The notes beneath the pieces are model-generated. The model ran no database searches. It was not told the DNA's origin and saw only the letters and a program-made list of their open reading frames with translations. DNA of 64,000 nucleotides. Source: an uncultured Acidobacteriota bacterium. GTDB taxonomy: Bacteria > Actinomycetota > Acidimicrobiia > Spongiisociales > ZC4RG35. The DNA is taken from the NCBI GenBank assembly GCA_963828465.1, contig CAWHEU010000022.1, positions 4,577 through 68,576 of the forward strand, in the 5' to 3' direction. Made by a program: the position numbers and the translations under genes. This document shows, piece by piece, positions 19,114 through 39,201 of the stretch. Position 1 is the first letter of the stretch. Each line of letters begins with the position of its first letter.

Positions 19114-19244
19114 ATGGGCCTCCTTCGTCCGGCCGCTTCCGACACAAACCTACGCCTCGGCAGGTTGCCAATGGGTGGCCTCAGTAGAGCCTGATCAACG
19201 ACGGCGCGGCGGCGTAGCCTGATACCGCGCACGGACAGGGGGAC

Positions 19245-20812
19245 ATGACCGGAAGCACATCGCTTTGGGGAACGACCTACTTCCTGGCGCTGTTCGCCGC
19301 GATACTGGCCCTTCCCACCAGCTGGTTTCTCTTCCGTCGCTACCGGCGGTCGATTCTTCGGCTGATGAACGAGCGCTCCTCTGGCGATCAGATGGCGGAG
19401 GACATTGGTCCGATCCCTGACCACCCCCGGCCCACGGCGTCACCGCACACCGACGTCATCGAGGCGGGGTTGCGACGGAACGTGATCGTGGTGGTCATCG
19501 TCGCACTCGTCTCCGCGTTCGCCTTCGCCGCGTTGTTCCTGGTCTGGAACGAAGTCGGCCTCTCGGTCTGGCGGCTCTCGACCTTCGGCATTCTCTACTC
19601 CTGGCCGGCGGTGATCGGAGTCTGGATCGTCACCGGCGGGCGGCGACGATGGGTCCTTACTTCCCTGGCCGTGTACTTCGTCTCTCTGGCTATCGCCGTG
19701 ACCGTCGCCGGCGGCTCATGGGACGTGCCGGCGCAGTTGTTCCTGTTCAGCCTGGTCCCCACCGCGGCGATCATCGGGTTCCTCTCCCGCCGCTTTCGCG
19801 GTGTGGGCGCTTTGGTGCTCGGCACGATGATGCTTGCCCTGGCCGGCTCTCAAGCCTTCGCTTTCACCGTTTTCGGTAACGAGGTCTTGATCACAGCTTG
19901 GGCCGAGATTCTCACTGCGCTCGGCGTCACCAGCGGCATGGTGGCGTGGTTGGCTCTGATTGGGGTGGGGTTCGTGTTGTCCCTCCTCCTCGGAGTCGTC
20001 GCAACCAGGCTGCTGGCTGGGTGGTACGCGCGATTTGGCTTCTCGGATCAGATGCTGCTCCTCGGCTCGACCTTCCTGGTCTTCGCCGTCGACCAATCCG
20101 GGTCGGCGAGCACGACGGAGGGAGGCCCCTTTGGAATAGGGCTGCTCATCTATGTCGCCGCCGCCGTGGTCGCCTTCGTTCTGTATCGCCTCATCCATCG
20201 CCGAGCCGGTGGACCCGTCAACTCTGCTGATGCTCAGGGTGTTCTCATCCGACCCCACACGCCAACGTCTGCTCGACCAGATCGCGTCCAAATGGCGGTA
20301 TCTCGGCCCGGTCATGATGATCGGAGGGCCTGACCTGGCCGTGAACAACGTCGAGCCGGATGAATTCCTCGCCTTCGTGAGCGGCCGGACGCGGCGACTC
20401 TTCGTCAGCGGCCCCGAAGATCTCGCCGAGAGGATTGCGGAGCCTCGAGATACGGACCGACCGGGACGCCCGCTACCGGATCGACGAGTTCTTCTGTTTC
20501 GACGACACGTGGCGTTCCACCGTGAGCGAGCTGCTCGCACATAGCGACGCCGTGGTCATGGACCTGCGTTCGTTTGGCCCCGAGAACCGGGGGTCGAGCC
20601 ACGAACTAGAGCTGCTCGCCTCACGAGGCGCATTGGGCCGGACCGTCCTTCTGGTGGACCAGAGCACCGATCGCGCCCTGCTCGACACGATCCTCGCTTC
20701 AGTGCCTGAGTCCAAGCCCCCACCGTTCTCGTGCGTCCACGACGACCAAGCCGATGAGGCGACGCTGGCCTGCCTGGCAGCAGTTGAGGACGCCGTTGCA
20801 AGTCACGGGTAG
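19245..20812 (+). CDS. polytopic membrane protein (~8 TM) with a cytoplasmic C-terminal domain of unknown function; two apparent frameshifts (~20205 and ~20460)
   Basis: Three consecutive ORFs (19245.., 20152.., 20435..) are in three different frames. Each carries protein-like sequence: TM helices, then TLLMLRVFSSDPTRQRLLDQIASKWRYLGPVMMIGGPDLA…, then RYRIDEFFCFDDTWRSTVSELLAHSDAVVMDLRSFG…. This suggests one gene broken by indels. Confidence 0.5.
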
Positions 20813-20892
20813 TCGACCATCGGTAGCCTGGATGTCCCACGAATGAAGGGATTCTGACCATCGTCGATCCCTGAGGTCTGAAGGGGGGACTA

Positions 20893-22398
20893 ATGACCGG
20901 CGCAATGTCGGCACCGAATCCGACATCGCGTCCCAGTGACGCTGTCTTCATCAGCTACACACACGTAGACAACAAGCCGTTCGGCCCCGAGAAGCAACGT
21001 TGGATATCGCTCCTCGACGAGCATCTGAGCGTTCGACTCGAGCAACTTGCACCAGAGCATCACGTGTCGGTGTGGCGGGACGACAAGCTCCAAGGCAACG
21101 ACGTGTTCTCCGAGTCGCTGAAGGAGCGACTGGGGGAGGTAGCAGTGTTGATTTCGGTGTGTTCGCCCAGGTACTTGGTCTCGGAGTGGTGTCAGAGAGA
21201 ACTCAATGAGTTCGTGCAGGCCCAGGCGAAGCGGGGGCTCGAAGTAGGGACGAAGAGTCGGGTATTCAAGGTGATGAAGACACCGGTGCCTCTAGACGAA
21301 CTCCCTCCTCCGCTCGCTCCGCTGTTGGGGTACGAGTTCTATGAGGTATTGCCGGAAGGCGACCACTTTCGAGAATTCCTTCTCAACCCGAATGAGGAGG
21401 CGCGATGGAAGTTCTACGCTCGAGCGGACGATCTCGCCCAGGACATCGCCGATCTGCTCGACGAGTTGGCCGATGAGGCCGTCCGCCCCGAACCGGTCAC
21501 CTCCAGCACCGTGTATCTAGCTGCGACCACATCGGATGTCTCGGAGGGCCGGGACGACCTCAAGCGGGAACTGCAGCGACGCGGCTTCCGGGTATTTCCC
21601 GATCGCGACCTGCCTTTCGTGGCAGACGACCTGTCAGCGGCCATCACTGGCTGGTTGTCCGAGTCGGACTTCTCGATCCATCTCCTCGGTGCCCGGTACG
21701 GCGCCAGGCCAGAGGGTGACGATCGGTCGATTCCCGACCTGCAACTGGAGCTTGCCCGAGGGTTCGCCAACCGACAGGTTCTGACTCAGCTCATCTGCAT
21801 CAACGACGGGCACGAGGTGGTTGAAGAAGAGCAGGTCGAACTCATCGAGAGAGTCGAGACGACGAACGTCGGCCGAGGAGTCGAAGTGGTGAAGGCTCCG
21901 TTCGATAGGTTCAAGGAACATGTCCTGGACACGATGTCTCGGAGCCCGCTGGCGACAAAAGTGGATACCGGAGCAGAGGGTAGGACCGTCTACCTCGCCT
22001 ACGACCGGGTAGACAGCGAGGCAGCTGAAGCGCTGCAGACCTTGATCGAGGATCGGGGGTACAACGTTTTGTCGCCACTCATGGAGGGATCCGAGTCTGA
22101 AGTGCGTGAAGTCCACGAAACATCGATGGTGCTGAGTGACGCAGTGCTGATCTACTACGGCAAATGCACTGAGCACTGGGTGCGAATGCGGCTCTTCGAT
22201 CTCATGAAAGTGCGCGGGTGGGGCAGAACTGAGCCTTACCTGGCTCAAGCCCTGTGGGTCGGTGCTCCCGACACGCCACACAAGGCGAAGGTGCACATCA
22301 CACAGACTCTGCTCCTGAACGGCATGGCCGATCCCGCGCTGACGGCACTCGAGCCATTCCTCGTACGTCTGGAAGGGCGCGACGCGAGCAACGGATGA
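20893..22398 (+). CDS. TIR-domain protein (N-terminal canonical TIR plus two further degenerate TIR-like modules)
   Basis: DAVFISYTHVDNK…WRDDKLQGNDVF…AVLISVCSPRYLVSEWCQRELNEF is a textbook bacterial TIR. Two later blocks beginning TVYLAATTSD… and RTVYLAYDRVDSEAAEALQ… repeat the fold signature. Stop overlaps the next start (ATGA at 22395). Confidence 0.8.
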   Translation: MTGAMSAPNPTSRPSDAVFISYTHVDNKPFGPEKQRWISLLDEHLSVRLEQLAPEHHVSVWRDDKLQGNDVFSESLKERLGEVAVLISVCSPRYLVSEWCQRELNEFVQAQAKRGLEVGTKSRVFKVMKTPVPLDELPPPLAPLLGYEFYEVLPEGDHFREFLLNPNEEARWKFYARADDLAQDIADLLDELADEAVRPEPVTSSTVYLAATTSDVSEGRDDLKRELQRRGFRVFPDRDLPFVADDLSAAITGWLSESDFSIHLLGARYGARPEGDDRSIPDLQLELARGFANRQVLTQLICINDGHEVVEEEQVELIERVETTNVGRGVEVVKAPFDRFKEHVLDTMSRSPLATKVDTGAEGRTVYLAYDRVDSEAAEALQTLIEDRGYNVLSPLMEGSESEVREVHETSMVLSDAVLIYYGKCTEHWVRMRLFDLMKVRGWGRTEPYLAQALWVGAPDTPHKAKVHITQTLLLNGMADPALTALEPFLVRLEGRDASNG

Positions 22399-25300
22399 CG
22401 GCTACGTCCCCACTATTCAATCCCTTCCCCGGTCTTCGGCCGTTTCGCGAGGACGAGACACCTCTCTTCTTCGGCCGAGATGCCCAGATCGACGAGCTCC
22501 TCGCCGAACTGGGTAGGTCCCGATTCGTAGCAGTCATGGGAGCCTCCGGAAGCGGTAAGTCGTCCCTGGTCACCGCAGGGCTTCTGCCCGCGCTCCAGGG
22601 TGGACTCTCACCGCGATTGGGGGCCAATTGGCGCATCGCCAGCTTGCGCCCCGGGGGCGACCCGGTGCGCAACCTGGCCAGGGCCCTCGTCGAACCCGGC
22701 GTCCTCGATCGAGACGGCTCCGATGAGACCAGAGGCGTCGATCAAACGGAGGCGTTGCTCAGACGAAGCGGTCTTGGTCTCGCCGATCTGGCAAGACGTG
22801 ACGAGAGCCTGAGAGACGGCCGCCTACTGGTCGTTGTCGACCAGTTCGAGGAGTTGTTCCGATTTCAGGACGCTGGGGGCAGGGCACACGACGGCGCGGA
22901 CAATCCGGCATTCGTCCGGCTCCTGATCGAGGCTGTCGCCGACGAATCCAACGTGAGTGTGATCTTGACCATGCGATCCGACTACTTGGGGGATTGTTCC
23001 CAGTTCGACCAGCTGCCCGAGACGATCAACCAAGGGCTCTATCTCGTTCCCCGGCTTACACGCACGCAGCTCCGCGGGGCGATCACCGGTCCAGTCGCCG
23101 TCGGGGGCGGAACGATTGCCCCTCGACTTGTGCAACGGCTCCTGAACGACGCCGGCGCGGATCCCGACCAGCTGCCCGTGTTGCAGCACGCCCTGATGAG
23201 GATCTGGGACCTGTGGACTGGGGACGTGACTGCTCCTGGGCCAATCGACCTCGAGCATTACGAGGCTGCCGGCGGACTCGAGGAGGCGCTCGCCCGGCAT
23301 GCCGACGAGGCATATGACGATCTGACCGACGATCGGAGCCGGCGGATCGCGGAGCTTGCCTTCAAGCGCCTCACTGAGCTCGGAAACGATGGTCGCGAGG
23401 GCCGTCACCCGGCCACGTTGGCCGAGATCGCCTCTGTTGCAGATGCCACGGTCGAAGAAACGCGCGAGGTGATCCGTCACTTCGAGCAGCCGGGAAGATC
23501 CTTCGTCATGGTGTCTGATGACGGAGTCGTCGACATCTCCCACGAAAGCCTCATTCGCCAATGGCCGAGACTCCGTGACTGGGTTGGCGAGGAGGCGGCC
23601 TCCCGAGACACGTATCACCGGCTGGCCGAGTCCGCCGGCCGATGGCGTCGAGGTGAGGCTGCTCTCATGCGAGATCCGGATCTGCAGCTAGCTGTGAACT
23701 GGTGGACGGACAACCAGCCGAGCGGTGCCTGGGCCGAGCGGTACGGCTCGACATTCCAGGACGCAGCCGACTACCTGGATCGGAGCCGCAAAGCCGAGAG
23801 AAGCCGGCGGCTTCTGACGTGGTCCGGTGTCGCAGGGCTGGGCGTCCTGGCAGTCCTGTTCGCGGTGTTGGCTGTATGGGCGATAACGGCAGAACAGGAC
23901 GCGAAGTATCAGGAACGTCTTGCTGTCGGAAGGCAACTCTCCGCGGTCTCGACCGAGCACGGACCGGAGCGTCGGACAACCAGCATCCTCACCGCATTGG
24001 AGGCTCTTCGGACTACCGAGACCGACGGACTGCGTCTCCCGGAGGCCGAGGAGGCACTGCGTGCTGCGATGCACGACCCGCTCGGCATCCGACTCCCCGG
24101 CCAGCCGGGTCAGCTCGGCCATGACGAGGATGTGACGACACTGGGTTTCAGTCCCGACGGGAGATGGTTGGCGACGGGTAGCGCTGACGACACGGTGTTG
24201 CTATGGGATCTGGAGGACACGGAAGGGGACCCGCGTCCGTTGCCCGGTCATGCCGACGACGTGGTGGCGTTGGCGTTCAGCCCCGACGCCCGTTGGTTGG
24301 CCACCGGCAGTCTCGACGGCACCGCCATGTTGTGGGACCTGGAAGATGCGGAAGCCAAGCCCCGGATCCTGGACGGCCATACAGATGAGGTGACATCACT
24401 TGCCTTCAGCCCCGATGGCAGCTGGCTTGCCACCGGGAGCGTCGACGAAACCATCCAGCTCCGTGAATTGGACAACCCGGATCTCGTGGCCCGTGTCCTC
24501 CAGAGCGAGGCGGGATTCATCCTCTGCCTGGCCTTCAGCCCTGACGAGAGGTGGCTGGCGGCCGGCACTGGCACCGGCGTCGGGTATCTGTGGGACATGG
24601 GGAATCCCGGCGGCGACCCCGAGACGCTCAGCGGTCACAACGATGCTGTGGTCGCTGTCGCTTTCAGCCGTGACGGTGCTTCGCTGGCCACCGGGAGCAG
24701 GGATGCGACGATCCGGCTATGGGACCCCGACGTTCCGACCAATCCGTTTGCCAGGCTGGAACAAGGCGACGCGGTGCTCGGCCTGGTGCTCAGCTCCGAC
24801 GGGAGATGGCTAGCCACCGGCGGTGAGGACAACGCCGCCCGTGTTTGGGACCTCCAGCGGTTGAGAGGATCCCCTGACCCGTCACTAGTCCTCGTGCACT
24901 CCGGCCCCGTGGAACGGGTCTCCTTCAGTGCTGACAACCGCTGGCTGGCCACCGGTGGTCCTGGTGACCCGGCTCGGCTCTTCCAGGTCAACGACGCGTC
25001 TCTGCCGCCCGTGGTGCTCGCCGGCCCGGTCACGGCCCTCGGGTTCAGCACCGACGACCGATGGCTGGCGATCGGATCGGATCAGGGCTCGGCTCGCCTT
25101 TGGGGGACGGACCAACTCCCAACACAACCGGCAGTGCTCGATCACGACGACAAGGTCTCAGCGATCGAATTTGGCCCGGACGGTCGTGTGGCCACGGGGA
25201 CCACAGCCAATGTCACGCGTCTGTGGAGTCTCGACGACCCTTCGGCTGAGCCCGAAGTGCTAGCGCAAACGGATTTCGGGTTCGATATGGCACAGGTGGA

Positions 25301-26141
25301 AGCGATCGCGTTCAGACCCGACGGACGTATGTTGGCCACCGGCAGCGGTGACATGCGGGTCCGGTTGTGGACGCTGGATCCTTCAGGGTCCCAACTCGTA
25401 TCCGAGGAGCCTCTCGAGGCTGGAATCAATGATCTGGCCTTTAGTGCGGACGGGGACCGGCTTGCTATCGCGGTGAAGGAAGAGGATGTCTTGCTGTGGG
25501 ATGTGGCGGAGCGGTCGTTCGAGCGTCTCGAGGGTCACAGTGCTGAGGTGCGGAGCGTGGCCTTCAGCCCGAACGGACGTTTGCTGGCCACTGGAGACCT
25601 GGACGGGGAGATCCGGGTCTGGAATCTCGAAGATCTGGAGGTTCCTCCGGAGTCTCTGCGCGCCCATGCCGAGCGGGTGACATCGTTGGCCTTCGACGGA
25701 GAGGGACGTCAGCTCGCGTCCGGGAGCTGGGATCAGACCGTCCAGATCTGGGAGGTCGACACGCGGAGCTACATCACGTTGAACACAGATGGTCGGGTCG
25801 ACAATGTAGCCCTTCGACCCGATGGGAAGTTGATTGCAGTGGCAGCCGATCAACCTCATTTATGGGATCTGACCGCCCCCGACCAGAACGACCCGATCGC
25901 CAATCCTGTCATTCTGCGGGACCACACCAGCGTCGTGAACGCGGTTGCATTCAGCGCGGACGGGAGATGGCTCGGTACCGGGAGTGACGATCACTCCGTT
26001 CGTCTCTGGCTCCAACTGGAGGAATTGGCAGAGCTCGGCTGTGCCAGCGCGGGACGGAACCTGAGTCACGACGAGGTGCAGGAAATCAATCCCGGCGCCA
26101 AGAGCGTTAGCACGTGCGAAGAATGGCCCGAGGGGTCTTAG
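22395..26141 (+). CDS. nSTAND-type P-loop NTPase (NACHT-like) with a central TM helix and ~15 C-terminal WD40 repeats
   Basis: PFPGLRPFREDETPLFFGRDAQIDELL…RFVAVMGASGSGKSSLVTAGLLP carries a Walker A motif. Walker B is LLVVVDQFEE. The hydrophobic segment LLTWSGVAGLGVLAVLFAVLAVWAI is a TM helix. Then ~15 repeats of the type GHxDxVxxLAFSPDGRWLATGSxDxTxxLWDL. Confidence 0.85.
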   Translation: MTATSPLFNPFPGLRPFREDETPLFFGRDAQIDELLAELGRSRFVAVMGASGSGKSSLVTAGLLPALQGGLSPRLGANWRIASLRPGGDPVRNLARALVEPGVLDRDGSDETRGVDQTEALLRRSGLGLADLARRDESLRDGRLLVVVDQFEELFRFQDAGGRAHDGADNPAFVRLLIEAVADESNVSVILTMRSDYLGDCSQFDQLPETINQGLYLVPRLTRTQLRGAITGPVAVGGGTIAPRLVQRLLNDAGADPDQLPVLQHALMRIWDLWTGDVTAPGPIDLEHYEAAGGLEEALARHADEAYDDLTDDRSRRIAELAFKRLTELGNDGREGRHPATLAEIASVADATVEETREVIRHFEQPGRSFVMVSDDGVVDISHESLIRQWPRLRDWVGEEAASRDTYHRLAESAGRWRRGEAALMRDPDLQLAVNWWTDNQPSGAWAERYGSTFQDAADYLDRSRKAERSRRLLTWSGVAGLGVLAVLFAVLAVWAITAEQDAKYQERLAVGRQLSAVSTEHGPERRTTSILTALEALRTTETDGLRLPEAEEALRAAMHDPLGIRLPGQPGQLGHDEDVTTLGFSPDGRWLATGSADDTVLLWDLEDTEGDPRPLPGHADDVVALAFSPDARWLATGSLDGTAMLWDLEDAEAKPRILDGHTDEVTSLAFSPDGSWLATGSVDETIQLRELDNPDLVARVLQSEAGFILCLAFSPDERWLAAGTGTGVGYLWDMGNPGGDPETLSGHNDAVVAVAFSRDGASLATGSRDATIRLWDPDVPTNPFARLEQGDAVLGLVLSSDGRWLATGGEDNAARVWDLQRLRGSPDPSLVLVHSGPVERVSFSADNRWLATGGPGDPARLFQVNDASLPPVVLAGPVTALGFSTDDRWLAIGSDQGSARLWGTDQLPTQPAVLDHDDKVSAIEFGPDGRVATGTTANVTRLWSLDDPSAEPEVLAQTDFGFDMAQVEAIAFRPDGRMLATGSGDMRVRLWTLDPSGSQLVSEEPLEAGINDLAFSADGDRLAIAVKEEDVLLWDVAERSFERLEGHSAEVRSVAFSPNGRLLATGDLDGEIRVWNLEDLEVPPESLRAHAERVTSLAFDGEGRQLASGSWDQTVQIWEVDTRSYITLNTDGRVDNVALRPDGKLIAVAADQPHLWDLTAPDQNDPIANPVILRDHTSVVNAVAFSADGRWLGTGSDDHSVRLWLQLEELAELGCASAGRNLSHDEVQEINPGAKSVSTCEEWPEGS
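24100..26010 (+). repeat. ~15 tandem WD40 repeat units (coding repeats) forming two beta-propellers
   Basis: The recurrent peptide AFSPDGRWLATGS…RLWDL is visible ~15 times, including the degenerate units at ~25142 and ~25860. Confidence 0.8.
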
Positions 26142-26151
26142 GCGCGGTCGC

Positions 26152-27213
26152 TCAGGACGGCGGGGGGGAGATCAGGGTCACTACTGCCAAGAACTCGCCG
26201 TCGTTGTTGGTGACGCCGATGTCGTTGATCCCGAGGTAGAGACGACCGTCGGATTCGACGGTCGTCTGGAACTCACTGCCCACTTCGAACGGGACCCCAT
26301 TCTCTCCGATTTTTCCGATGAGCCCGGCATGATTGGCATCCTCGACCCCGGGCAGATTGGATTCGTGTCCCGGAAGGTTGGGGTCACCATCAGGAGTGAG
26401 CAGCGGGCCGTTCTCGGAGTGCTTTATCCGGCCGCCGGCTTCGATGTCGAGTGTGACTCCCGTGACGACATCGATACCGGAGTCCGTCCACAACACCGTG
26501 CCGGGCACCCGGACAGTCTGAGTTTTCGATGGCTCGGCATCGCATGCCTGAAATCCACCGACAAACTCTCCAAGCGGCGGAGCATCCGGGTCCAGCCGCG
26601 CCTCCTCGAACCACGCATTGAATTCTTGGGTGGGAACGCATATCGCGGGCCCCGGGGCCTGGCCTTTGGTCAGAAACGCGGCCTCGGTATAGGTTCCCTC
26701 CCTTGCCTCGTAGGTCTGGGAAAGACCCTCGGAGGTGAGCTCGATCGACCCCTTCTTGACCACGACACACGTGTTCTCAGTCGGCGGCTGACAAGCCGTG
26801 AACACCGTGGCGGGCTCCAATGCCGTGATGGTCGAGCTCGACGTTTCCAGTGTCAGACGGGTGTCGCTCACTTCGTCGTCGGTGAAGGTGACATGACCGC
26901 CGCCGAGGTACGCCCTCGCTTCCGCCGGTTCCCAGCTCTCGAGTTGGATGGCCGCCTGCCTGGACAACTCGAATCTGCCCAGGTCTCGGATCGTGAGGAG
27001 CCCACTGGCGCCGGGCCCCAACGTGATCTGGTTTCCCAGATCGATCGATTCACCGTCCCCGGTGCCGATCTCGGTTTCGCTCACCGAAATAGGGCCCTTA
27101 TAGACAACCAGATCTGCCTGCATGGGCGGTGTGACTTCATCTCCTCCGCAGGCAGCTAAGGCGAGGGTGATGAGCGTGATAGCCAGTCCCCCCCGAGACT
27201 TCCGTCGCAACAT
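26152..27213 (-). CDS. secreted lipoprotein with a beta-rich C-terminal domain, function unknown
   Basis: MLRRKSRGGLAITLITLALAACGGDE gives a lipobox LAAC. The Gly/Thr/Asp-rich C-terminus looks like a beta-sandwich. The ORF extends to 27258. Confidence 0.65.
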   Translation of the reverse strand: MLRRKSRGGLAITLITLALAACGGDEVTPPMQADLVVYKGPISVSETEIGTGDGESIDLGNQITLGPGASGLLTIRDLGRFELSRQAAIQLESWEPAEARAYLGGGHVTFTDDEVSDTRLTLETSSSTITALEPATVFTACQPPTENTCVVVKKGSIELTSEGLSQTYEAREGTYTEAAFLTKGQAPGPAICVPTQEFNAWFEEARLDPDAPPLGEFVGGFQACDAEPSKTQTVRVPGTVLWTDSGIDVVTGVTLDIEAGGRIKHSENGPLLTPDGDPNLPGHESNLPGVEDANHAGLIGKIGENGVPFEVGSEFQTTVESDGRLYLGINDIGVTNNDGEFLAVVTLISPPPS

Positions 27214-27395
27214 GCTCCCTCCAGTCCGGTCAACTCTATCCGAGGTCTGGTGGCCCAACAGGGCGAGAACCGCATATGGGCCACCATCCCGAAAGGAGCG
27301 GGTTGGAGCGGCGCTGATACGAGGATCGGGCCGCCCACGACGGCCGTCTCCGGTTAGCCCAGCCGCGTAGGCTCGGCCGTCGAAAGGGGGACTCG

Positions 27396-28353: not shown

Positions 28354-29919
28354 ATGTCGTTCTTCGACTCGCCACTTGGTGAGCAGCTCCGCTCCAGCCT
28401 CGATGCGGGGAAACCAGAGGACATCGCCGCCGCGGTAGGGGTGGTCAAGGGGAAGGTGTGGTCGGGGACAGTGCAGCCCGATCAGGTCGACGAGGTCCTC
28501 GCAGAACTGCAGCGACAACGACAGGTTCAGCACGTCATCGACATCGCCGATGCGGCCACCGCGGTCGGCTCGATCACGACGTCGGGCCGTCGCCGCTACT
28601 GCCAGATGCTGATCGAGTCGGGAGCCCTCCATGCCGGCGAGCTCGCCTGCGCAGAGCTTCTCGATCTGGCCGAGGATGCGAAGGAGCGGGGGGAGGCACT
28701 GGGGCTGCTCGGGCGGATCCGCAAGCAGCGTTACGTGACCAGCCGCCGGCCCGAGGATTTGATCGGCGCAATTGCCGCCTATCAGTTCGCATACGCGGGA
28801 GGCGGCGACCCGCTCTGGCATGGCATCAATCTCCTCGCACTCACCACCCGGGCCCATCGTGACGGAATCCTCGTTCCCCAACCGGTCGACACGGACGCTC
28901 TGACACGCACGCTCCTCGACGTAGTCAGGCAGACGGCACCCGAGTTGCAAGAGATCTGGGAGCGCACCACCGAGGTCGAGGCCCTGGTCGCCCTGGGCGA
29001 CAAGGCGTCGGTGGACGAAGCGGTGTCGGTGGCACAGAAACTCGCCAGCAGCAAGAGTGTCCGGCCGTTTGAGCTGGAGAGCCTTCGCCGTCAGCTGGCC
29101 GACATCTGGGAACTCGAGCCGCATCACCCGGTGCTGGTGGCCATCGCAGCGCAGAAGCTCCAACTCGGGGCCAGGGCCCATGTCGAGCTGCCCGATTCCG
29201 CGGGCCAGTTGGAGAAGATCTTCGGGACGGCCCTGCCTGTGGGGTACAAGCACCTGATGAGGGGTCTCGAGTGCGCAGAATCGGTGGGAAAGATCACCGA
29301 CGCATCCGAAGAGCCGTGGGGCACGGGATTCCTCCTACGCGGGAATCTGATCCATCCCGACTTCGGCGATGGACTGGTGCTGGCTACCAACGCCCACGTC
29401 TGTAGTCCAGAGCCCGGAGTGGGCAAGCTGCTGCCGAGCGAGGCGAAGGCTGTCTTCGACGTGACCAAGTCGGTCGATGGGGAGCAACTCGTCCTCACCG
29501 GCTTCGAGTGCCTGTGGAGCTCACCACCCTCGGTATGCGATGTCACCATCCTTCGCTTCACCGGACCCGAGCCGGCGCTCAAAGGCCAGCTCGACGTCGC
29601 CGCGTTGCCCCAGCCAGTGACGGAGGGCGCATATGTCTATGTCATCGGCCATCCGGCGGGGGGTGGGATCAAGTTTTCGATCAGGGGCAACGACCTTCTC
29701 GCCTATGACGCCGACATGTTCAAAGTCCACTACACCGCCCCCACCGAAGGGGGCAGCTCCGGGAGCCCGGTCTTCAACCAGGCATGGCAGCTGATGGCTG
29801 TTCATCACGCTGGAGATTCGAAGATGCACCGACTGGACGACCCTTCCGCTACGTATCAGGCCAACGAGGGGATCACGATCAAGGGGATCAGAGAGGAGTA
29901 CTCCAAGAATGGAAAATGA
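28354..29919 (+). CDS. N-terminal alpha-helical (TPR-like) domain fused to a C-terminal trypsin-like serine protease
   Basis: Catalytic triad context: LATNAHV (His), YDAD (Asp), GGSSGSPVF (Ser) in the C-terminal ~220 aa. The N-terminal ~300 aa is helical. No signal peptide. Confidence 0.8.
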   Translation: MSFFDSPLGEQLRSSLDAGKPEDIAAAVGVVKGKVWSGTVQPDQVDEVLAELQRQRQVQHVIDIADAATAVGSITTSGRRRYCQMLIESGALHAGELACAELLDLAEDAKERGEALGLLGRIRKQRYVTSRRPEDLIGAIAAYQFAYAGGGDPLWHGINLLALTTRAHRDGILVPQPVDTDALTRTLLDVVRQTAPELQEIWERTTEVEALVALGDKASVDEAVSVAQKLASSKSVRPFELESLRRQLADIWELEPHHPVLVAIAAQKLQLGARAHVELPDSAGQLEKIFGTALPVGYKHLMRGLECAESVGKITDASEEPWGTGFLLRGNLIHPDFGDGLVLATNAHVCSPEPGVGKLLPSEAKAVFDVTKSVDGEQLVLTGFECLWSSPPSVCDVTILRFTGPEPALKGQLDVAALPQPVTEGAYVYVIGHPAGGGIKFSIRGNDLLAYDADMFKVHYTAPTEGGSSGSPVFNQAWQLMAVHHAGDSKMHRLDDPSATYQANEGITIKGIREEYSKNGK

Positions 29920-30721
29920 CGCAATCCCTCCGGAGTTCCTGGAGCCCGAGGGCGACGCCGAGCGCCAGGATCCCGACCTCGTCTTCGAGACGACGTCAGC
30001 GACACTACGGGGGCTGTGGAATGACTGGATGTGCAAACGAGGTGACGGGACTTTCGTCGACGTCGAATTCTTCGGCCGCCGGATCGGCGGAGTGCCGACC
30101 CCGGCGGTCGACGCCTATCGGGCGCTCGAGGTAGCCCTGCGCTCCGCCGGTTACAAGCCAGATTCGCGGTGGGCGTACAACTGCAGGCTCATCGAGGGGA
30201 CGGACAAGCCCTCGCTGCACTCGGCCGGGATCGCAGTTGACATCGACCCGGACGAGAACCCGTTCTCGAAGGGTGACCCCTTCGCCGGGAAGATGGGTCC
30301 CGACCATGTCGCCGCGGCGCTGGCCATTCGCAACAGCGCCGGCGCCCGGGTGTGGTCCTGGGGCGGGCATTGGAACAAGCCCGATCGGATGCACTTCCAG
30401 CTCGACAGGGGGCCTGCGGCGGTGGATGTGGATTGGCGAACCGTCCCCGGTGGTGGCCCCGAAAGCGCCAGTTCGGGGTCAATGGACGTGAAGGAGGAAG
30501 AGATGGTTCTGTCCAAGAGCATGAAAGGCCCAGCAGTGGAGCGGTTCCAGCAGTGCCTGCTCGATTGGAATGCCAAGGCGCTGCCGAAGGACGGAGCCGA
30601 TGGTGTTTTTGGGAGCGAGACCGTCGAATGGGTGGGGCGGTTCCAGGAGGCCCTTGGTCTGGAGAAGACCGGAGTGATCGACGGGGTGACCGCGGCCTTG
30701 CTGGTCGCCCACGGGAAGTAA
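29909..30721 (+). CDS. M15 family (VanY/D-Ala-D-Ala carboxypeptidase-like) zinc peptidase with a C-terminal peptidoglycan-binding (PG_binding_1) domain; no signal peptide
   Basis: SLHSAGIAVDID (H…D zinc ligands) and GGHWNKPDRMHFQ (His). C-terminal GPAVERFQQCLLDWN…DGVFGSETVEWVGRFQEALGL matches the PG-binding fold. 11-nt overlap with the upstream stop. Confidence 0.8.
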   Translation: MENDAIPPEFLEPEGDAERQDPDLVFETTSATLRGLWNDWMCKRGDGTFVDVEFFGRRIGGVPTPAVDAYRALEVALRSAGYKPDSRWAYNCRLIEGTDKPSLHSAGIAVDIDPDENPFSKGDPFAGKMGPDHVAAALAIRNSAGARVWSWGGHWNKPDRMHFQLDRGPAAVDVDWRTVPGGGPESASSGSMDVKEEEMVLSKSMKGPAVERFQQCLLDWNAKALPKDGADGVFGSETVEWVGRFQEALGLEKTGVIDGVTAALLVAHGK

Positions 30722-30727
30722 CAAGCC

Positions 30728-32245
30728 ATCAAGGTCTTCCTGAGCTACCGGCGGGACGACACGGCGGGGCGCGCCGGAAGGCTCCACGACGCCCTGGCCT
30801 CGAGTTTCGGCACCCGCAACGTGTTCATGGACGTTTCCGCCATCGCGGTCGGCACCGACTTCGTCGACCAGGTGGAACGAGCGATCTCGACGAGCGACGC
30901 CTCGCTGGTGGTGATGGGGCCGAATTGGCTCGGGGCCACTGACCCCGAAGGCCGTCGGCGGCTCGACGATCCCCAGGACCACGTGAGGTCTGAGGTGCGC
31001 TCCGCGCTGGCCTCACCCAACCCGGTGGTTCCGGTGCTGGTCGGGGATGCATCGTTGCCGACCGAGGACCAACTGCCTGACGATCTGAAAGCCCTGGCGC
31101 GCCGACAAGCCGTGGAATTGCGGGACGAGACATGGTCTGAAGATGTCGAGATGCTGGTCCGGCGTCTCGAAGGCAAGGAGACGGTCCGGGAACCCCGCCG
31201 CTGGATTCTGCTGGCCATTGGCTTGATACTCCTGGGTGGCGTCGGCGCCGCTATCTGGATGGCTCAGGCAGGCGGCGAGGATGAGTTGACCCAATGCTCG
31301 GTGCCGGACGAGACATGGACCACGATCGACGTGGAACCCGGCGCCACGGACGTCGAACAATTGGAGCGGGATCGGGCACTCCGCTACACGGTGGTGAGTA
31401 CGGATTTCAGGGATGAACCCGGGGACGAGTGGTACGTCGTGCTCCATGTGAGGCTGGAGAACGAGTCCACGGACGTGGCGGGAAACGACGACCACACCGG
31501 GTACGGACCGTCGATCTTCGACGCCCTGCACGTCGATGAGATCTCGGTCGGGGGCCCTTACTGCTTTGGCGAGAACAGTGGTGACAGCGATCTCGCCCCG
31601 GGGGAGGCGGCCAACGCACGGGTTGGATTCCTCTCCGTACCTGGACCCCACCGAGGCAAGTCTGATGCTCGAGACCGATGGGCCCCTCTTTATCGAGATC
31701 ACCCCGGGCGCGTGATGCCGACGGTCCTGTTCTCGGGCCACATGGTCGATGCACCAGACCGGCCGTCTCCACGCTTCCCACCCGAGCGTGTTCCCCTGGT
31801 GCGGCGGGCGATCGCGGAAGCCGTCTGGCTCATCGATGACACCGACGCGGAGGCGATCTCGGGACTCGCCTGCGGGGGCGATCTCCTCTTCGCCGAGGAA
31901 TGGCTGAAGACCGGGCGGCCCTTGCACGCCTATCTGCCACGTGAAGAGGCGGATTTTCTCGACGAGTCGGTTCGTTTTGCCGGCTCGGAGTGGGTGGACT
32001 CGTTCCGTGAAGTGACCGCTGATCCGAACCTGGTCCTGATCGGTCCGGACCAAGAGATGCTTGGTTTGAACGAACCGCACACCGCGAACAACCTCCGCAT
32101 GCTCGAAGCTGCGTTGCTGCGGCCCGGCGCCCTCAACGGTCTGTTCCTTTGGGACGGCAAGGGAGGCGACGGTCCGGGAGGCACCGAGCACCTGGCCTCT
32201 GAGGTGGTCGAGCAGGGCGGGAGTGTCACCGTTCTCCGTCCGTAG
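30728..32245 (+). CDS. TIR domain – TM helix – C-terminal Rossmann-like (LOG/SLOG-like) domain protein; non-canonical start (ATC where ATG is expected)
   Basis: (I/M)KVFLSYRRDDTAGRAGRLHDALASSFGTRNVFMDVSAIAVGTDF…ASLVVMGPNWL is a canonical TIR. TM helix RRWILLAIGLILLGGVGAAIWMA. The C-terminus has ISGLACGGDLLFAEEWL … LFLWDGKGGDGPGGTEHL, reminiscent of LOG/SLOG Rossmann domains. The reading frame is open only from the TAA of the upstream gene (30719-30721). The first in-frame ATG (30830) lies inside the TIR domain. Confidence 0.65.
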   Translation: MKVFLSYRRDDTAGRAGRLHDALASSFGTRNVFMDVSAIAVGTDFVDQVERAISTSDASLVVMGPNWLGATDPEGRRRLDDPQDHVRSEVRSALASPNPVVPVLVGDASLPTEDQLPDDLKALARRQAVELRDETWSEDVEMLVRRLEGKETVREPRRWILLAIGLILLGGVGAAIWMAQAGGEDELTQCSVPDETWTTIDVEPGATDVEQLERDRALRYTVVSTDFRDEPGDEWYVVLHVRLENESTDVAGNDDHTGYGPSIFDALHVDEISVGGPYCFGENSGDSDLAPGEAANARVGFLSVPGPHRGKSDARDRWAPLYRDHPGRVMPTVLFSGHMVDAPDRPSPRFPPERVPLVRRAIAEAVWLIDDTDAEAISGLACGGDLLFAEEWLKTGRPLHAYLPREEADFLDESVRFAGSEWVDSFREVTADPNLVLIGPDQEMLGLNEPHTANNLRMLEAALLRPGALNGLFLWDGKGGDGPGGTEHLASEVVEQGGSVTVLRP

Positions 32246-33145: not shown

Positions 33146-36065
33146 CTAGGACCGGTCCTCGATGGCCTCCGGGGGCTCGATCCACTGCAATACCGTTCGG
33201 TAGTCGGCGGCGGCCCCTTCGGCGATCAGGCGGTCCCGCTCCGGTGGAAGGAGACCACCCTCGACCTCTTCACGGAATCGGGCCATTTCGTCCGGACTGG
33301 CCCCGACCCGGTTCCGCTCGACGCTGCCGAGAAACCGGGCGGCTGCAGACAGGTCACCTTCCGCCAGAGCAAGACGGAGGGCCTGTGCCGGGATCCCGGC
33401 CTGGACCTCTCGATCGAAGAGGAGGAGACGGTGGGCGGCCGATGTGAGCTCGACCCTGGCCGCCGCGAGACGTCCTTCATCGATGTGGCTGCGGATCGCA
33501 CGGGCGCCCGATCGGGCGGAGCAGGGCAGATCACCCACTTCGGCCAAGATCCCGGCTGCCTCGGCCAGATCGTCGGTTGAGGCCCCCAGTCCGAGATCCT
33601 GGGTCACCGCCCCGTGGTAGTAGAGGGCATGGCCCAACCCGTGACGGGATCCCAGATCACTCAGGATCTCGATGCTCTGGCGCAAGTTGGCCAGGACCCA
33701 CTCATCGTGACCGGATCCGATGTGGCTGGCCGAGGTCATCATCGATGCCGCGGCCAGATATCCGTCGCCGACCGTCAGCGCCTTCGAGATCGCGGCTTCG
33801 ACATGCTCCCGCCGCTGTTCCGGAGGACCGGCCTGCCCGAAGGCGAGCATGAACTCGATGATCGCCTGATCCCATTCCGGGTCCCACATCGGCGGGTGCC
33901 GGACATTCGCCAGAATCTGACGACCCTCCTCCATCCAGCCGCCCGCGTCCTGATGACCGACGAGGTTGGAATAGGCCATCCCGCGGGTCAGCGTGAGCCA
34001 CCCGACGAGCGCGTCGTCCCCGGCGCTCCGGGCACATTCGAGACCCAGATCTGCATAGTTCACCGCGGCCGGGTCGGTGAGGAAGGTCGCCAGCAGAGAA
34101 GCGGCCAGCCACGCCCTGGCGGCCATGGCGGGCGAGGCTTCGTCGCCATGTGATCGGAGCGCTCCCACCAACAGGTCCCGGCCTTCGACCTGGAGACTGG
34201 ATTGGGCCCAGAACCAGGTCAGATCGAATCCGATGTCGAGGAATCGGTCGATCTCCCCACGGCCGAGCAACGTGGACATGGCAACGCGGATGTTGTCGTT
34301 CTCCAAACAGGAGACTGCGGTTGGCCTGACGCTGGTCGGGACCGCGCAAGCTCGGGGCGATCTGCGCCACTGCGTTGGCGTAGTGAATGGCGTGGAGGAG
34401 CCGTACTTCGTCTTCCTCTCCTTCATCGGCCAGACGGGCCTGTCCGTATTGGCGGATCGGCTCGAGGAGTCGGAAGCGAGAAAAGCGAGCTTGCTGGATA
34501 GGCACCACGAGCGACTTGTCCACCAGCTGATCGAGCAAACCGAAGACATCGGTGGTGTCTCCGACGTTCTCAGCAGCAGGGAGATCGAACCCGCCGGCGA
34601 AGACCGAAAGACGTCGGAAAAGCGCCGACTCTTCCTCGCTGAGCAGGTCGTAGGACCAGCCGATCGTGTTCTCGAGGGTTCGCTGCCGGCGCACCGTCGT
34701 CTTCGAGGCTGCGGTGAGGACCCGGAACGACGTCTCGAGCTGGTCGGCGAGGTCGAGGAGGGTGAGAGTGCGGACCCGTGCCGCGGCCAGCTCGATGCCG
34801 AGAGGAATCCCGTCGAGACGACGGCAGATCCTGGCGATGGCTTCCAGGTCGGCGTGCGAAGGGGCGAGATCCGGCTTCATCCTGGCGGCCCGGTCGAGGA
34901 AGAGACGCACCGACTCCGATCGCGCCAGGTCCGATCCCTCTCCGGGCAGGCCAAGCGACGAGACCCGGAACACGATCTCGGCGGAGGTCCCGAGCGTCTC
35001 CCGTGATGTGGCCAGGATCGACAGGCCGGGGCTGGATCCGAGCATTTCTACCGCGATCGCCGCAGCCTCTTCGAGGAGGTGCTCACAGTTGTCCAGCAGC
35101 AATAGGAGCTTTCTTCGGGCTAGGTGAGCCTTGATCACCTGGATCAGGCCCATCCCGTCGCCGGCGCGCAGGCCCCAGACGTCGGCCACCTCATTCACGA
35201 CCAGGGCCGGATCTGCGATGTCGGCCAGCCCGGCCATCCAAACGCCATCAGGGAAGTCGTCTCCGAGGGCTCCGGCTACTTCCATGGCGAGACGGGTCTT
35301 GCCGGTCCCACCAACCCCGGTGAGGGTTACCAGCCTGTTGGACTGGAGCAGGGCCTTTACTTCCTCGAGGTCCTCGCGCCTCCCTACAAACGAGGTGAGT
35401 TGCGCCGGGAGATGAACCAGGTCGACCGGCTCGGTGCGCAGTGGCTCGGTTACCTCGGGCAGATCGGGATGGAGCAGCTCGAAGAGGCGCTCCGGGCGTT
35501 CCAGGTCCCTGAGAGGATGGACCCCTCGGTCCTGCAACTCCATGGGGGCTTCAACCAATTCTGCGGTCAGCTCAGCAGTGGCTCCCGACACCAGAATTTG
35601 CCCACCGTTCGCCGCTGCCATCACGCGGGCCGCCCTGTTCACATCGGGCCCGAAGTAATCGCCGGCCCGTTCGTACGAAGTGCCGGTATGGACCCCAATC
35701 CTGACGCGGATCGCCGGCCCTTCCCAAGCTTCGTCCAGAAGACCGAGCTGGGCCCGCATTGCGGCGCCAAGCGCGGCCAACGGCGTGGTGAAGGCGGCGG
35801 CAAAAGAATCCCCGGCGCTGGAGAAGACGTACCCATCGAGGTCAGCGATGGCGGATTCGAGAATGCGGTCGTGGGCGATCAGGCTCGCCGCCATGCCGTC
35901 ACGGTCCGCTTCCCAAAGACGGGTCGAACCGGCCACGTCGCTGAACAGGAACGAGACCGTGCCGGTGGGCCTGGAGTCCACCGTCGGAGGGTATCGGGGT
36001 CCCACGCGGGCCGCTAAGACGTCGGGTTCTACCGCGTCGGCAGGAACCAGTAGACGTAGCCGCAC
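33146..36065 (-). CDS. class III adenylate cyclase – NB-ARC/AAA ATPase – TPR STAND-family protein (paralog 1); frameshift near 34306-34328
   Basis: TGTVSFLFSDVAGSTRLWE…GDSFAAAF (cyclase). TLTGVGGTGKTRLA (P-loop). LLLLDNCEHL (Walker B). TPR-like C-terminus. The last ~390 aa are in another frame (33146..34549). Confidence 0.8.
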
Positions 36066-37616: not shown

Positions 37617-39201
37617 CTAGTTCTCGCGTCGGGTGGAGAGAGCTTTTTCCGTCAGGGCGAACACCTTGACCGGTCTCTGTACACCCTTCATCACCAGGTC
37701 TTCGACCGGAACCCCATCGACCCGGTCCTGTACCGCTGCCATGGTCCGCTCAGAGACCAGGACCTGACGCGGCTCGGCAGCCGTGGCAAGTCGAGCCGCC
37801 ACGTTCACGTGGTTTCCCACCACCGTGTAGTCGGTCCTCGTCGACGAACCGATGTTGCCCACCGTGACATATCCGGTGCTGATCCCGACGCCGACGGAGA
37901 GCTCCTCCTCAGAACGCATCCACGTGGCCCGCAGCTCCTCCACCTTGGCCAACATCTCGAATGCGGTAGCCACGGCCCGTTCGGCATGATCCTCGAACGG
38001 GATGGGATCACCGAAGAAAGCAAGCACTCCGTCCCCCAGGTACTTGTCCAGCGTGCCCCCGTTGGAGAAAACGATGTCGGTCATGGCGCTGAAGTACTCG
38101 TTCAGGGCATCGACGAGCTCCTCTGGCTCCATTCGCTCCGCGATCTGTGTGAAACCCCGGATGTCCGAGTAGAGGATCGTCAGATTGCGTCGGACCGAGG
38201 CGAAGGCCACCGGCTCGTCCCCGGCGAGTATCGCGTCCGCCACTTGCGGAGAGACGTATCGCCTCAGCTGCTCGGTCCGCTGCAGCTGGGTGACCTGTTC
38301 TTCGATGGTCTGCTCCAGATTGGCATTGAGCTGGCTCAATCCCTCGTACAAGGTGGAGAGCTGCCTGCTCGTCCGGTTCAGGTTGACCGTCAGCCTCCCG
38401 AACTCGTCACGGTTGGGGACTTCTACTTCCTGGCCGAAGTCGCCGTCGGCGATCCTTCCCAGTGCCAGATCGATCTTTCGCACCGGGCGCACCAGCGACC
38501 ACGACAGGATGGCTCCCATCGCCAGAGCGGTGAGCAGGCTGACCCCGGCGAACGCGGCAACAGTCACCGTGAGGAAGCGGCGATTCCCCCGGAAGTTCTC
38601 GAGCTCGGACGCAATGTCTTCCCTCCAGCGAGCCGATCATCAGGTTGAGATCGTCTTCCAGCTCATGTGAGATCTCGTGCTCGGCCGAGATGTGAACATC
38701 GGAGGCTCGGGTCATGTCGCCGGCCTCGTAGAAAGCCAAGACTTCTTCAGCTGCCTCGGCGTACCGGAGGTCGGTTGCGTCGATTCGGTCGACGATGGCG
38801 ACCAGCTCTTCGTCTGCCACATCTCTGATCGCCTGCATGTCGTTCGTGAAGTTCTCTTTGGCCTGGGCGATCTTGTCGTTCCACGAGTCGACCTGGGTGA
38901 TCAGGGCCATAGCCCGGTAATGGCTCTGCGCTGTCACTGCATAGATGCCCTGCTGGGCGAGCTCCAGCTGATCTTGGAGCTCGATCACCTGGTCCATCTG
39001 CCGGTTCATCGCGTTGATCACGACGATGCTGAAGACCCCCATGGCAAGAAGGAGCAGCGCACTCAACAGGAAGCCGGCGAGCAGCTTGGTGTGGATCGTC
39101 GCCGGCGCACGCGCCACCATGTCGATGAGCGGGCGCACCCAACGGACGGGGAGTGGATCTGGATTTGGTTCCGGCGCGCCCTGATTGACCGCGTCTGTCA
39201 T
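37617..39201 (-). CDS. membrane sensor adenylate/guanylate cyclase with a HAMP domain; frameshift near 38620-38635
   Basis: N-terminal TM, periplasmic helical sensor, second TM, HAMP (DGDFGQEVEVPNRDEFGRL), cyclase (ILYSDIRGFT…LDKYLGDGVLAFFG). The two halves are in different frames. Confidence 0.8.

Follow-up and report, generated by a model that had tools for sequence, protein, structure and literature searches.

STAND/NLR receptors of bacteria, plants and animals are regarded as intracellular sensors, and surface sensing coupled to TIR signaling is regarded as a feature of the Toll-like receptors of animals. Here we describe a pair of overlapping genes, A and B, that encode a protein with three TIR-like domains and a STAND protein with a predicted membrane helix between its NTPase and its WD40 repeats. 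The pair lies on the forward strand of a stretch of 64,000 nucleotides (contig CAWHEU010000022.1, positions 4,577 to 68,576), which we call the window and to which all unlabeled coordinates refer.

The described systems that come closest share individual elements with this pair. Avs and other NLR-like STAND proteins, including the NIR(DUF4062)-Avs2 of Pseudomonas chlororaphis (10.64898/2026.09.04.749371), are tripartite, with an effector, a STAND NTPase and a C-terminal repeat sensor; the effectors belong to the NAD+-cleaving TIR/NIR class, and the sensors are modular and evolve rapidly. For nSTAND1, the excerpts considered here of Kaur, Iyer, Burroughs and Aravind 2021 (PMC8195603) predict a counter-invader role, with TIR among the linked effectors, and describe systems in which nSTAND1 is fused to FGS/C-lectin sensors and coupled via EAD or Death-like adaptors. 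Three preprints from 2026 rename DUF4062 as NIR and describe it as a TIR-like NADase that depends on one Glu and supplies the effector function in Avs2, Vulcan, Vesta, Swarozyc, Evangelion and human TEP1; such Glu-dependent NADase effectors have been demonstrated experimentally in Avs and in other systems (10.64898/2026.09.04.749371; 10.64898/2026.05.01.722283). Swarozyc, Evangelion and Vulcan are encoded by single genes and Vesta by two; they depend on the catalytic Glu (E97, E87, E98 and E103, respectively) and have no STAND partner. Eukaryotic TEP1, NWD1 and NWD2 (DUF4062(NIR)-NACHT-WD40) each consist of one cytoplasmic polypeptide, in which the NTPase is of the NACHT type and the NIR domain is catalytically competent (E1008 in TEP1).

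The reading that we favor, with somewhat more belief than doubt, is that A and B make up a transmembrane NLR-like conflict module, in which the sensor is extracytoplasmic, the STAND switch is cytoplasmic and the effector is a TIR NADase. The pair itself is real and intact, and it is a member of a large conserved family. Its features are the following.

20880 to 20889, + strand: purine-rich ribosome-binding site GAAGGGGGGA, 3 nt 5' of the gene A ATG, read from the sequence
20893 to 22398, + strand: gene A, 501 aa, three tandem TIR-superfamily domains, predicted effector (open reading frame and translation)
20944 to 21483, + strand: D1, TIR_2 domain, residues 18 to 197 of A, motif S97-x-W99-C100-x-x-E103
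21508 to 21939, + strand: D2, DUF4062/NIR-like domain, residues 206 to 349 of A, without the catalytic Glu
21985 to 22374, + strand: D3, flavodoxin-like TIR/N-deoxyribosyltransferase-like fold, residues 365 to 494 of A, conserved E427-x-W429-x-R431
22395 to 22398, + strand: ATGA overlap of the gene A stop and the gene B start, read from the sequence
22395 to 26141, + strand: gene B, 1248 aa, single-pass membrane STAND protein, predicted sensor and switch
22422 to 23804, + strand: nSTAND1 NTPase module, residues ~10 to 470 of B, from Pfam and conserved motifs
22539 to 22565, + strand: Walker A, G49 to S57, within the nSTAND1 module
22839 to 22853, + strand: Walker B, D149 to E153, DQFEE, within the nSTAND1 module
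23811 to 23900, + strand: predicted transmembrane helix, residues ~473 to 502 of B, from hydropathy, with RSRKAERSRR just N-terminal
24117 to 26072, + strand: 15 WD40 repeats, residues ~575 to 1226 of B, predicted extracytoplasmic beta-propellers, sensor

The longest open reading frame listed for gene B runs from 22254 to 26141 with a GTG start; we set the start at the ATG at 22395 because the conserved N-terminus NPFPGLRPF begins there. With this start the two genes share the ATGA, from which translational coupling is predicted, and in many related loci A and B likewise overlap by 1 to 4 nt or abut. GC content at third codon positions favors coding in both frames. Around the pair we found neither a tRNA nor flanking repeats nor the boundary of a mobile element, and a promoter and terminator scan of the pair gave nothing that exceeded shuffled expectation.

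An earlier note, made from the letters of this DNA alone, had described a 501-aa TIR protein in ATGA overlap with a protein of about 1,250 aa that carries an nSTAND NTPase (FFGRD, GASGSGKSSLV, DQFEE), a single predicted transmembrane helix and about 15 WD40 repeats. This description was borne out on each count: the TIR, nSTAND1 and WD40 Pfam models gave strong matches, the NTPase motifs proved widely conserved, Kyte-Doolittle hydropathy supports the one helix, and 15 repeat anchors were counted. The note had also taken A for a TIR effector. The TIR_2 domain is indeed present; A is not a simple TIR protein, having three TIR-like domains, one of which is a degenerate DUF4062/NIR domain. The two further domains of A, and the implication of the helix that the WD40 repeats lie across the membrane from the NTPase, go beyond what the note had said.

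Protein A lacks any hydrophobic segment by hydropathy and is described as cytoplasmic, and its AlphaFold2 model (predicted local distance difference test score, 86.9) has three alpha/beta domains. For conservation we aligned 38 full-length homologues with 37 to 82% identity to the window protein (at most 92% among all matches). D1 carries the Pfam match to TIR_2 (PF13676; E value, 4.1e-15; 56.8 bits against a cutoff of 28; residues 18 to 112), and its S97, W99, C100 and E103 are invariant across the 38 homologues. In a sequence search of the PDB, E103 (codon 21199 to 21201) aligns to the Glu of the plant TIR motif WCxxEL ('WCLDEL'), and it is the predicted catalytic Glu, on helix alpha-C in a WxxxE/WCxxEL context, which TIR domains require to cleave NAD+. 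Foldseek matched D1 to SPARTA TIR-APAZ, MyD88, SARM1, AbTir and plant TIRs. D1 is also the best-conserved part of A, with 68 to 72% identity versus 44 to 54% for D2 and D3.

D2 resembles DUF4062 (PF13271), with a Pfam score marginally under the cutoff (24.5 bits against 24.7; E value, 3.2e-5); the family is precomputed for many homologues of A, and several relatives score 27 to 48 bits. When canonical DUF4062 proteins taken from plasmids were aligned to D2 by hhalign (E value, 3.7e-5; probability, 44%; 131 columns), their 'SYTExE-Y/F' motif corresponded to S279-I-P-D282-L-Q284-L. Q284 stands opposite the second Glu of the motif, which is the E-Y glutamate of Evangelion; its column is at least 90% identical in the 38 sequences, and by our reading of the alignment the Gln is kept in about 36 of the 38. 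D282, at the first Glu of the motif, is variable in the A family, where D, E, H, Q and V occur. D2 thus lacks the conserved catalytic Glu of DUF4062/NIR domains (equivalent to E87 of Eva01, E97 of KpSwz and E108 of PsAvs2). NIR domains with an E-to-Q mutation are inactive, and because the same change inactivates NIR domains experimentally, D2 is most likely a pseudo-enzyme in which Gln has replaced the catalytic Glu.

D3 may possibly serve in docking or regulation. Similarity between D1 and D2, or between D1 and D3, was undetectable by hhalign, and that between D2 and D3 was suggestive, no more. Searched against the PDB by sequence, A gave weak plant-TIR matches and spurious matches to repeat proteins and nothing else. 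Relatives of A bear extra TIR_2, second DUF4062, CHAT protease or ParA-like domains.

Protein B begins with a strong match to nSTAND1 (PF20703; E value, 2.8e-102; 343.6 bits against a cutoff of 27.1; residues 10 to 420), in which FFGRD and the Walker A sequence GASGSGKSSLV (residues 47 to 58) are present. NPFPGLRxF, GxSGSGKSS, DQFEE, TMRSD and DISHES each reach at least 95% conservation in 68 partner proteins; that Walker A, Walker B and the other motifs are kept implies an active NTPase. The C-terminal half matches WD40 (E value, 1.5e-114), with 15 anchors of the xxFSPDG type between residues 583 and 1184 at a period of about 43 aa, visible in the DNA as 129-nt repeats; a model of the second beta-propeller of TEP1 also matches. 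The WD40 region evolves faster than the NTPase (44 to 49% versus 65 to 67% identity to the closest genome loci).

Between these modules lies the sole strongly hydrophobic stretch of B (Kyte-Doolittle 19-mer peak, 2.67). The 68 partner proteins have a helix at the same position with hydropathy of 2.3 to 3.2, and at a strict threshold a post-NTPase helix was found in 87 of the 106 evaluable nSTAND1 homologues; such a predicted helix after the NTPase thus characterizes, in these sequences, the nSTAND1 subclade to which B belongs. There is more Lys and Arg N-terminal of the helix (mean, 6.4 versus 3.3 on the C-terminal side; N-side richer in 61 of the 68 partners), and N-in/C-out insertion is predicted for this reason. 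In sister nSTAND1 proteins the modules past the helix are dCache_1 (closed by a second helix), CAP, ARC6-IMS, trypsin, DUF2914 and TPR, several of which are typically extracytoplasmic families. The variant that ends in SpoIIE, the only one with a cytoplasmic-type C-terminal enzyme, has no helix. A single helix would put the NTPase on one side of the membrane and the WD40 repeats on the other, and the WD40 module of B is probably extracytoplasmic, judging by hydropathy, charge bias and the comparisons with related proteins and loci.

The two genes stay together over a wide range of bacteria. A scan that took a single genome for each species turned up at least 576 relatives of A, and we examined the best 80 loci for neighbors: an nSTAND1 gene adjoins A on the same strand in 78 of the 80, and the other 2 end at a contig edge. 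These loci come from about ten phyla (Actinomycetota, Acidobacteriota, Bacteroidota, Verrucomicrobiota, Cyanobacteria, Pseudomonadota, Spirochaetota, Chloroflexota and others) and have only A and B in common, their flanking genes being unrelated. The earlier note had proposed conservation of the pair as a check and core housekeeping genes with uniform synteny as what would tell against a conflict role; the genes are neighbors in many phyla with differing flanks, and no such uniform synteny was seen. The nearest genome-resolved relatives of A, at about 55% identity, are from metagenome-assembled genomes of Acidimicrobiales and Thermoleophilia. On long metagenome contigs, all four of four diverse A homologues adjoin an nSTAND1 gene, one with the gene order reversed and one with a SpoIIE phosphatase in place of WD40, and longer variants of the pair keep the adjacency in 2/2 metagenome contexts. 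In the reciprocal direction, three nSTAND1 homologues from a search with B, picked independently of A and each with a different C-terminal module, were all preceded by a TIR_2(+DUF4062) gene of 461 to 525 aa. The two proteins also occur as one polypeptide, in which A is fused to nSTAND1 (P0310), and another protein (P0222) is an nSTAND1 fused to a TIR domain. Word-indexed homologues of A number 534, and an exhaustive HMMER scan gave 880 representative clusters (50% identity) at E values of 1e-30 or below. As judged from these comparisons, A and B form an obligate, mobile module; its patchy, multi-phylum distribution, with swappable C-terminal modules and a fast-evolving WD40 region, is a pattern typical of sensors.

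In a variant pair, the nSTAND1 protein of L004 and L013 (L004:9515-11677; P0131) has no membrane helix and no repeat sensor and ends in a SpoIIE (PP2C) phosphatase. The L075 locus contains, 2 kb 3' of its pair, another nSTAND1-like gene (L075:7465-9834), which is more divergent (209 bits) and whose product has a helix at residues 584 to 607.

In the mechanism that we propose, B would be inserted N-in/C-out, with its nSTAND1 NTPase in the cytoplasm and its 15 WD40 repeats at the cell surface in this probably monoderm actinobacterium and in the periplasm in diderm relatives. A cue on the envelope side would bind the propellers and bring about NTP-dependent oligomerization of the nSTAND1 modules at the inner face of the membrane; candidates for the cue are the apparatus with which a phage adsorbs or injects, a bacteriocin, damage to the envelope and a foreign cell. 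A would act as the detached N-terminal effector module of this STAND protein, recruited and clustered by the oligomer. In known TIR enzymes the active site forms only in oligomers; clustering of A may likewise assemble the D1 TIR_2 active site and allow cleavage of NAD+, and either depletion or an ADP-ribose-derived signal could then lead to growth stop or cell death. D2 and D3 would most likely contribute docking, oligomerization or regulation, not catalysis. Where TrkA_N-RyR or SLATT genes are neighbors, an NAD-derived signal may gate a membrane effector; where only the two core genes are present, the output is likely to be the depletion of NAD+ itself. The pairing of effector, STAND switch and repeat sensor is strengthened by the existence of the fused A-nSTAND1 protein.

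Compared with Avs, to which the earlier note had likened the pair, the logic of effector, STAND NTPase and repeat sensor is the same, and so are the NAD+-cleaving effector class and the modular, fast-evolving sensors. The likeness to Avs, as to bNACHT, is one of logic only: here the sensor is predicted to be extracytoplasmic, with a helix between NTPase and sensor, the NTPase is of the nSTAND1 clade, and the effector is separate, translationally coupled and composed of three TIR-like domains, including a NIR-like domain with Gln for the catalytic Glu. The nSTAND1 conflict systems (PMC8195603) share the NTPase clade; compared with those systems as described in the excerpts considered, there is no shared adaptor here, and WD40 (or TPR, dCache, CAP and others) stands behind a membrane helix. 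Those excerpts do not mention a triple-TIR partner, membrane topology or a link to a TonB-dependent receptor. TEP1, NWD1 and NWD2 share the trio of a NIR-like domain, a STAND NTPase and a WD40 module, distributed here over two proteins, with an nSTAND1 NTPase, a membrane-spanning arrangement, a degenerate NIR domain and an added canonical TIR_2. The catalytic core of Swarozyc (KpSwz in the PDB), Evangelion, Vulcan and Vesta is homologous to D2, in which, unlike in those systems, the family of A has Gln. Functional analogies only are offered by Toll-like receptors, with an extracytoplasmic repeat sensor, a single helix and a cytoplasmic TIR output, and by FecA-FecR, in which the gene of an outer-membrane TonB-dependent receptor lies beside that of a single-pass inner-membrane transducer; their sensor and transducer modules are not homologous to those of the pair, in which a STAND switch stands between the helix and a separate TIR protein.

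Searched against PADLOC-DB 2.0.0, A gave only weak matches in its TIR regions (SAVED_TIR, 3e-6; PDC-S66, 2e-4; ThsB, 0.02), and B gave weak P-loop matches to mad3 and mad8, a WD40-driven match to HEAT-ARM_XIII and none to an Avs model. We rejected the Avs families 1 to 5 and later ones, which are single polypeptides with the effector at the N-terminus and a cytoplasmic sensor for terminase, portal or another core protein of a phage (no Avs model match, effector in a separate gene, membrane helix present), FxsC, the TIR-like protein of the FxSxx-COOH system (NF040588; 52.2 bits against an NCBIfam cutoff of 130), Thoeris (NCBIfam models far under cutoff) and, as a place to file the pair, the single-gene DUF4062 system. 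The arrangement is not described in the passages searched of a 2020 eLife paper on conflict systems and a 2026 STAND survey. Full-text literature on nSTAND1, on DUF4062 and on combinations of STAND, TIR, WD40, transmembrane and periplasmic gave no account of the pair or of a membrane-spanning STAND receptor; this coverage was partial, and an earlier description is possible. The pair is of a known kind in joining a STAND switch to a TIR effector in a conflict system; what is new is the detached triple TIR-like effector, the degenerate NIR domain, the membrane-spanning STAND protein with its predicted extracytoplasmic sensor and, in diderms, the link to an outer-membrane receptor.

This link comes from the neighboring genes in other genomes. 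In diderm lineages the same-strand gene after B encodes a TonB-dependent receptor in 16 of 34 such loci, which belong to a cluster of 19 loci. In other diderm loci this gene encodes a barrel of the OMP_b-brl_2 or MetA type, and its start codon often overlaps the stop codon before it. A 2TM-TrkA_N-RyR gene lies upstream in 12 Bacteroidota loci, and a gene for a multi-pass membrane protein of about 414 aa lies downstream in 10 loci. An extended operon composed of 2TM-TrkA_N-RyR, A, B, the TonB-dependent receptor and the ~414-aa membrane protein occurs in Bacteroidota and some Acidobacteriota (for example, L033:5031-6980, L033:11632-14202 and L043:14328-15500, plus 10 to 19 similar loci), and a TrkA_N-RyR gene is also found near the Thermoleophilia locus L002/L003. 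The TonB-dependent receptor, TrkA_N-RyR and 414-aa membrane protein genes are absent from the window, and we therefore place these diderm accessory genes outside the core. Taken broadly, and as a tentative view that we hold with more doubt than belief, the nSTAND1 subclade may represent widespread transmembrane NLR-like receptors whose sensors (WD40, TPR, dCache, CAP and others) survey the periplasm or surface, which in diderms often guard or listen to a TonB-dependent receptor, and which fire a cytoplasmic triple-TIR effector.

The same neighbors raise the main rival, a nonlethal and nonimmune signaling across the envelope, which we consider rather unlikely. B would then sense the status of the envelope or a ligand in the periplasm or at the surface (such as whether a TonB-dependent receptor is occupied, in the manner of FecA-FecR), and A would make or bind an NAD-derived messenger or act as a scaffold, regulating physiology, such as ion flux via 2TM-TrkA_N-RyR or a transporter, without killing the cell. 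Such a role fits the TonB-dependent receptor genes directly 3' in 16 to 19 loci, the ~414-aa membrane protein next in 10, and the 2TM-TrkA_N(NAD-binding)-RyR gene 5' in the 12 Bacteroidota loci and near the Thermoleophilia locus, and it is consistent with the low PADLOC association among the neighbors, with two of the three TIR-like domains being without an evident catalytic Glu, and with the chromosomal position of the pair amid metabolic genes in the window. However, these accessory genes are missing from the window and from most loci, and a regulatory output domain, DNA-binding or other, is absent from both proteins. The invariant catalytic Glu of D1, the fusion of A relatives to CHAT protease and extra TIR domains, the swappable and fast-evolving sensor modules, and the patchy distribution over phyla with unrelated flanks argue instead for the conflict module.

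We give still less credit, and consider it improbable, that B is a conventional cytoplasmic Avs-like antiphage sensor, whose hydrophobic segment merely tethers it or is buried and whose propellers bind a phage protein inside the cell, like the TPR/WD40 sensors of Avs and Apaf-1-like STANDs. Sensing is cytoplasmic in all characterized bacterial STAND defense proteins, WD40 repeats are mostly cytoplasmic modules, and eukaryotic TEP1 and NWD1, with their DUF4062-STAND-WD40 architecture, are cytoplasmic. Yet a single helix splits the flanking modules across the membrane, and the NTPase requires cytoplasmic NTP; a tethered or buried segment accords poorly with hydropathy kept at 2.3 to 3.2 in the 68 partners together with the positive-inside bias, with dCache and its second helix, CAP and ARC6-IMS past the helix in sister proteins, with the absence of the helix from the SpoIIE variant, and with neighboring outer-membrane barrel genes that look cotranscribed. 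We rejected the buried helix in particular because the segment is conserved, because charge is biased around it, and because of the kinds of modules that sister proteins carry after it. That the adjacency is fortuitous, or that A alone is a single-protein TIR/NIR system of the Swarozyc, Evangelion or Vulcan type and B unrelated, is scarcely credible even though single-gene DUF4062 defense proteins exist, being effectively refuted by the conservation of the pair (78/80 loci, 3/3 in the reciprocal test, the ATGA overlap and the A-nSTAND1 fusion), while D2 lacks the catalytic Glu that the single-gene systems need.

Several points weigh against the transmembrane conflict module that we favor. Neither protein fits any named system in PADLOC, in keeping with the statement of the earlier note that the pair is not a named system, and no EAD-type adaptor domain common to A and B was found. 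The topology of B rests on hydropathy, charge bias and comparative context, and the A-nSTAND1 fusion is represented by one contig-truncated sequence. The neighboring TonB-dependent receptors or transporters could fit nonimmune envelope signaling equally well. The pair is surrounded in the window by metabolic and transport genes, and only about 3 of 50 immediate upstream same-strand neighbors match PADLOC models, and in this limited test, without background control, the pair showed no enrichment in defense islands.

Single loci lie among toxin-antitoxin, TIR, PIN, HNH or Schlafen-type genes. One (L091:2-6366) lies in a dense island of ParE/YoeB-Phd and PIN-VapB pairs with a pentapeptide-TIR protein and a nucleotidyltransferase, and another (L090) has AAA_35/AAA_21 and HNH genes upstream.

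In the window, the gene that converges on B is separated from it by a 10-bp gap.

26152 to 27258, - strand: predicted lipoprotein, 368 aa, lipobox LAAC, no Pfam match

Its place 3' of the pair is conserved only in those loci of the Acidimicrobiales type that are closest (L007, L008, L010, L011 and the P0005 contig). This could be mere lineage synteny, or the protein could act outside the cytoplasm as a partner of the WD40 module in monoderms. Upstream of A, 19233 to 20791 (open reading frames 19245 to 20333 and 20435 to 20812) is a remnant of a gene for a 535-aa multi-pass membrane protein, a family with no Pfam match. L001, the contig most closely related (83% nucleotide identity), has this gene in intact form, 60 bp from the 5' end of A; in the window the homology crosses three reading frames, and we therefore regard the remnant as a pseudogene or the result of assembly indels.

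Farther downstream, 28354 to 30721 holds overlapping genes for a TPR-S and Trypsin_2 protein and then a Peptidase_M15_4 and PG_binding_1 protein, and the P0005 contig has both in synteny with the pair. In the Thermoleophilia locus L002, the TIR gene is followed by one that encodes a CHAP and PG_binding_1 protein. A second TIR_2 gene of the window (30821 to 32245) encodes 474 aa; its product, in which about the first 27 positions of the TIR profile are unmatched, has a membrane helix predicted at residues 127 to 150 and a C-terminal 'GGDGPGGTEH' motif that is LOG/SLOG-like by eye only. L002 likewise has a TIR_2 gene, of 442 aa, close to the pair. On the - strand, 33702 to 36065 encodes a fusion of an adenylate/guanylate cyclase with a STAND NTPase of the NB-ARC type and 37617 to 38567 a HAMP-cyclase protein, which together make a second STAND-type signaling or conflict gene less than 8 kb from the pair. 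The TPR-S-trypsin, second TIR and cyclase-NB-ARC genes all lie less than 10 kb from the pair.

The family to which the pair belongs is large, with at least 576 relatives in species-representative genomes and about 880 clusters at 50% identity. If the broad view of the nSTAND1 subclade given above is true, it would provide the first STAND/NLR-type immune receptor shown to sense outside the cytoplasm, merging the logic of Toll-like receptors (outside sensor, helix, TIR) with the NTPase-driven oligomerization of NLRs. If both topology and function hold, D2 would be a natural example of a pseudo-enzymatic NIR domain, the link between TonB-dependent receptor and STAND protein would be experimentally tractable, and the family would form an evolutionary bridge between Toll-like receptor-like and NLR-like architectures. 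The family would then represent a class of bacterial immunity or conflict systems that detects attack at the envelope, before or during genome entry.

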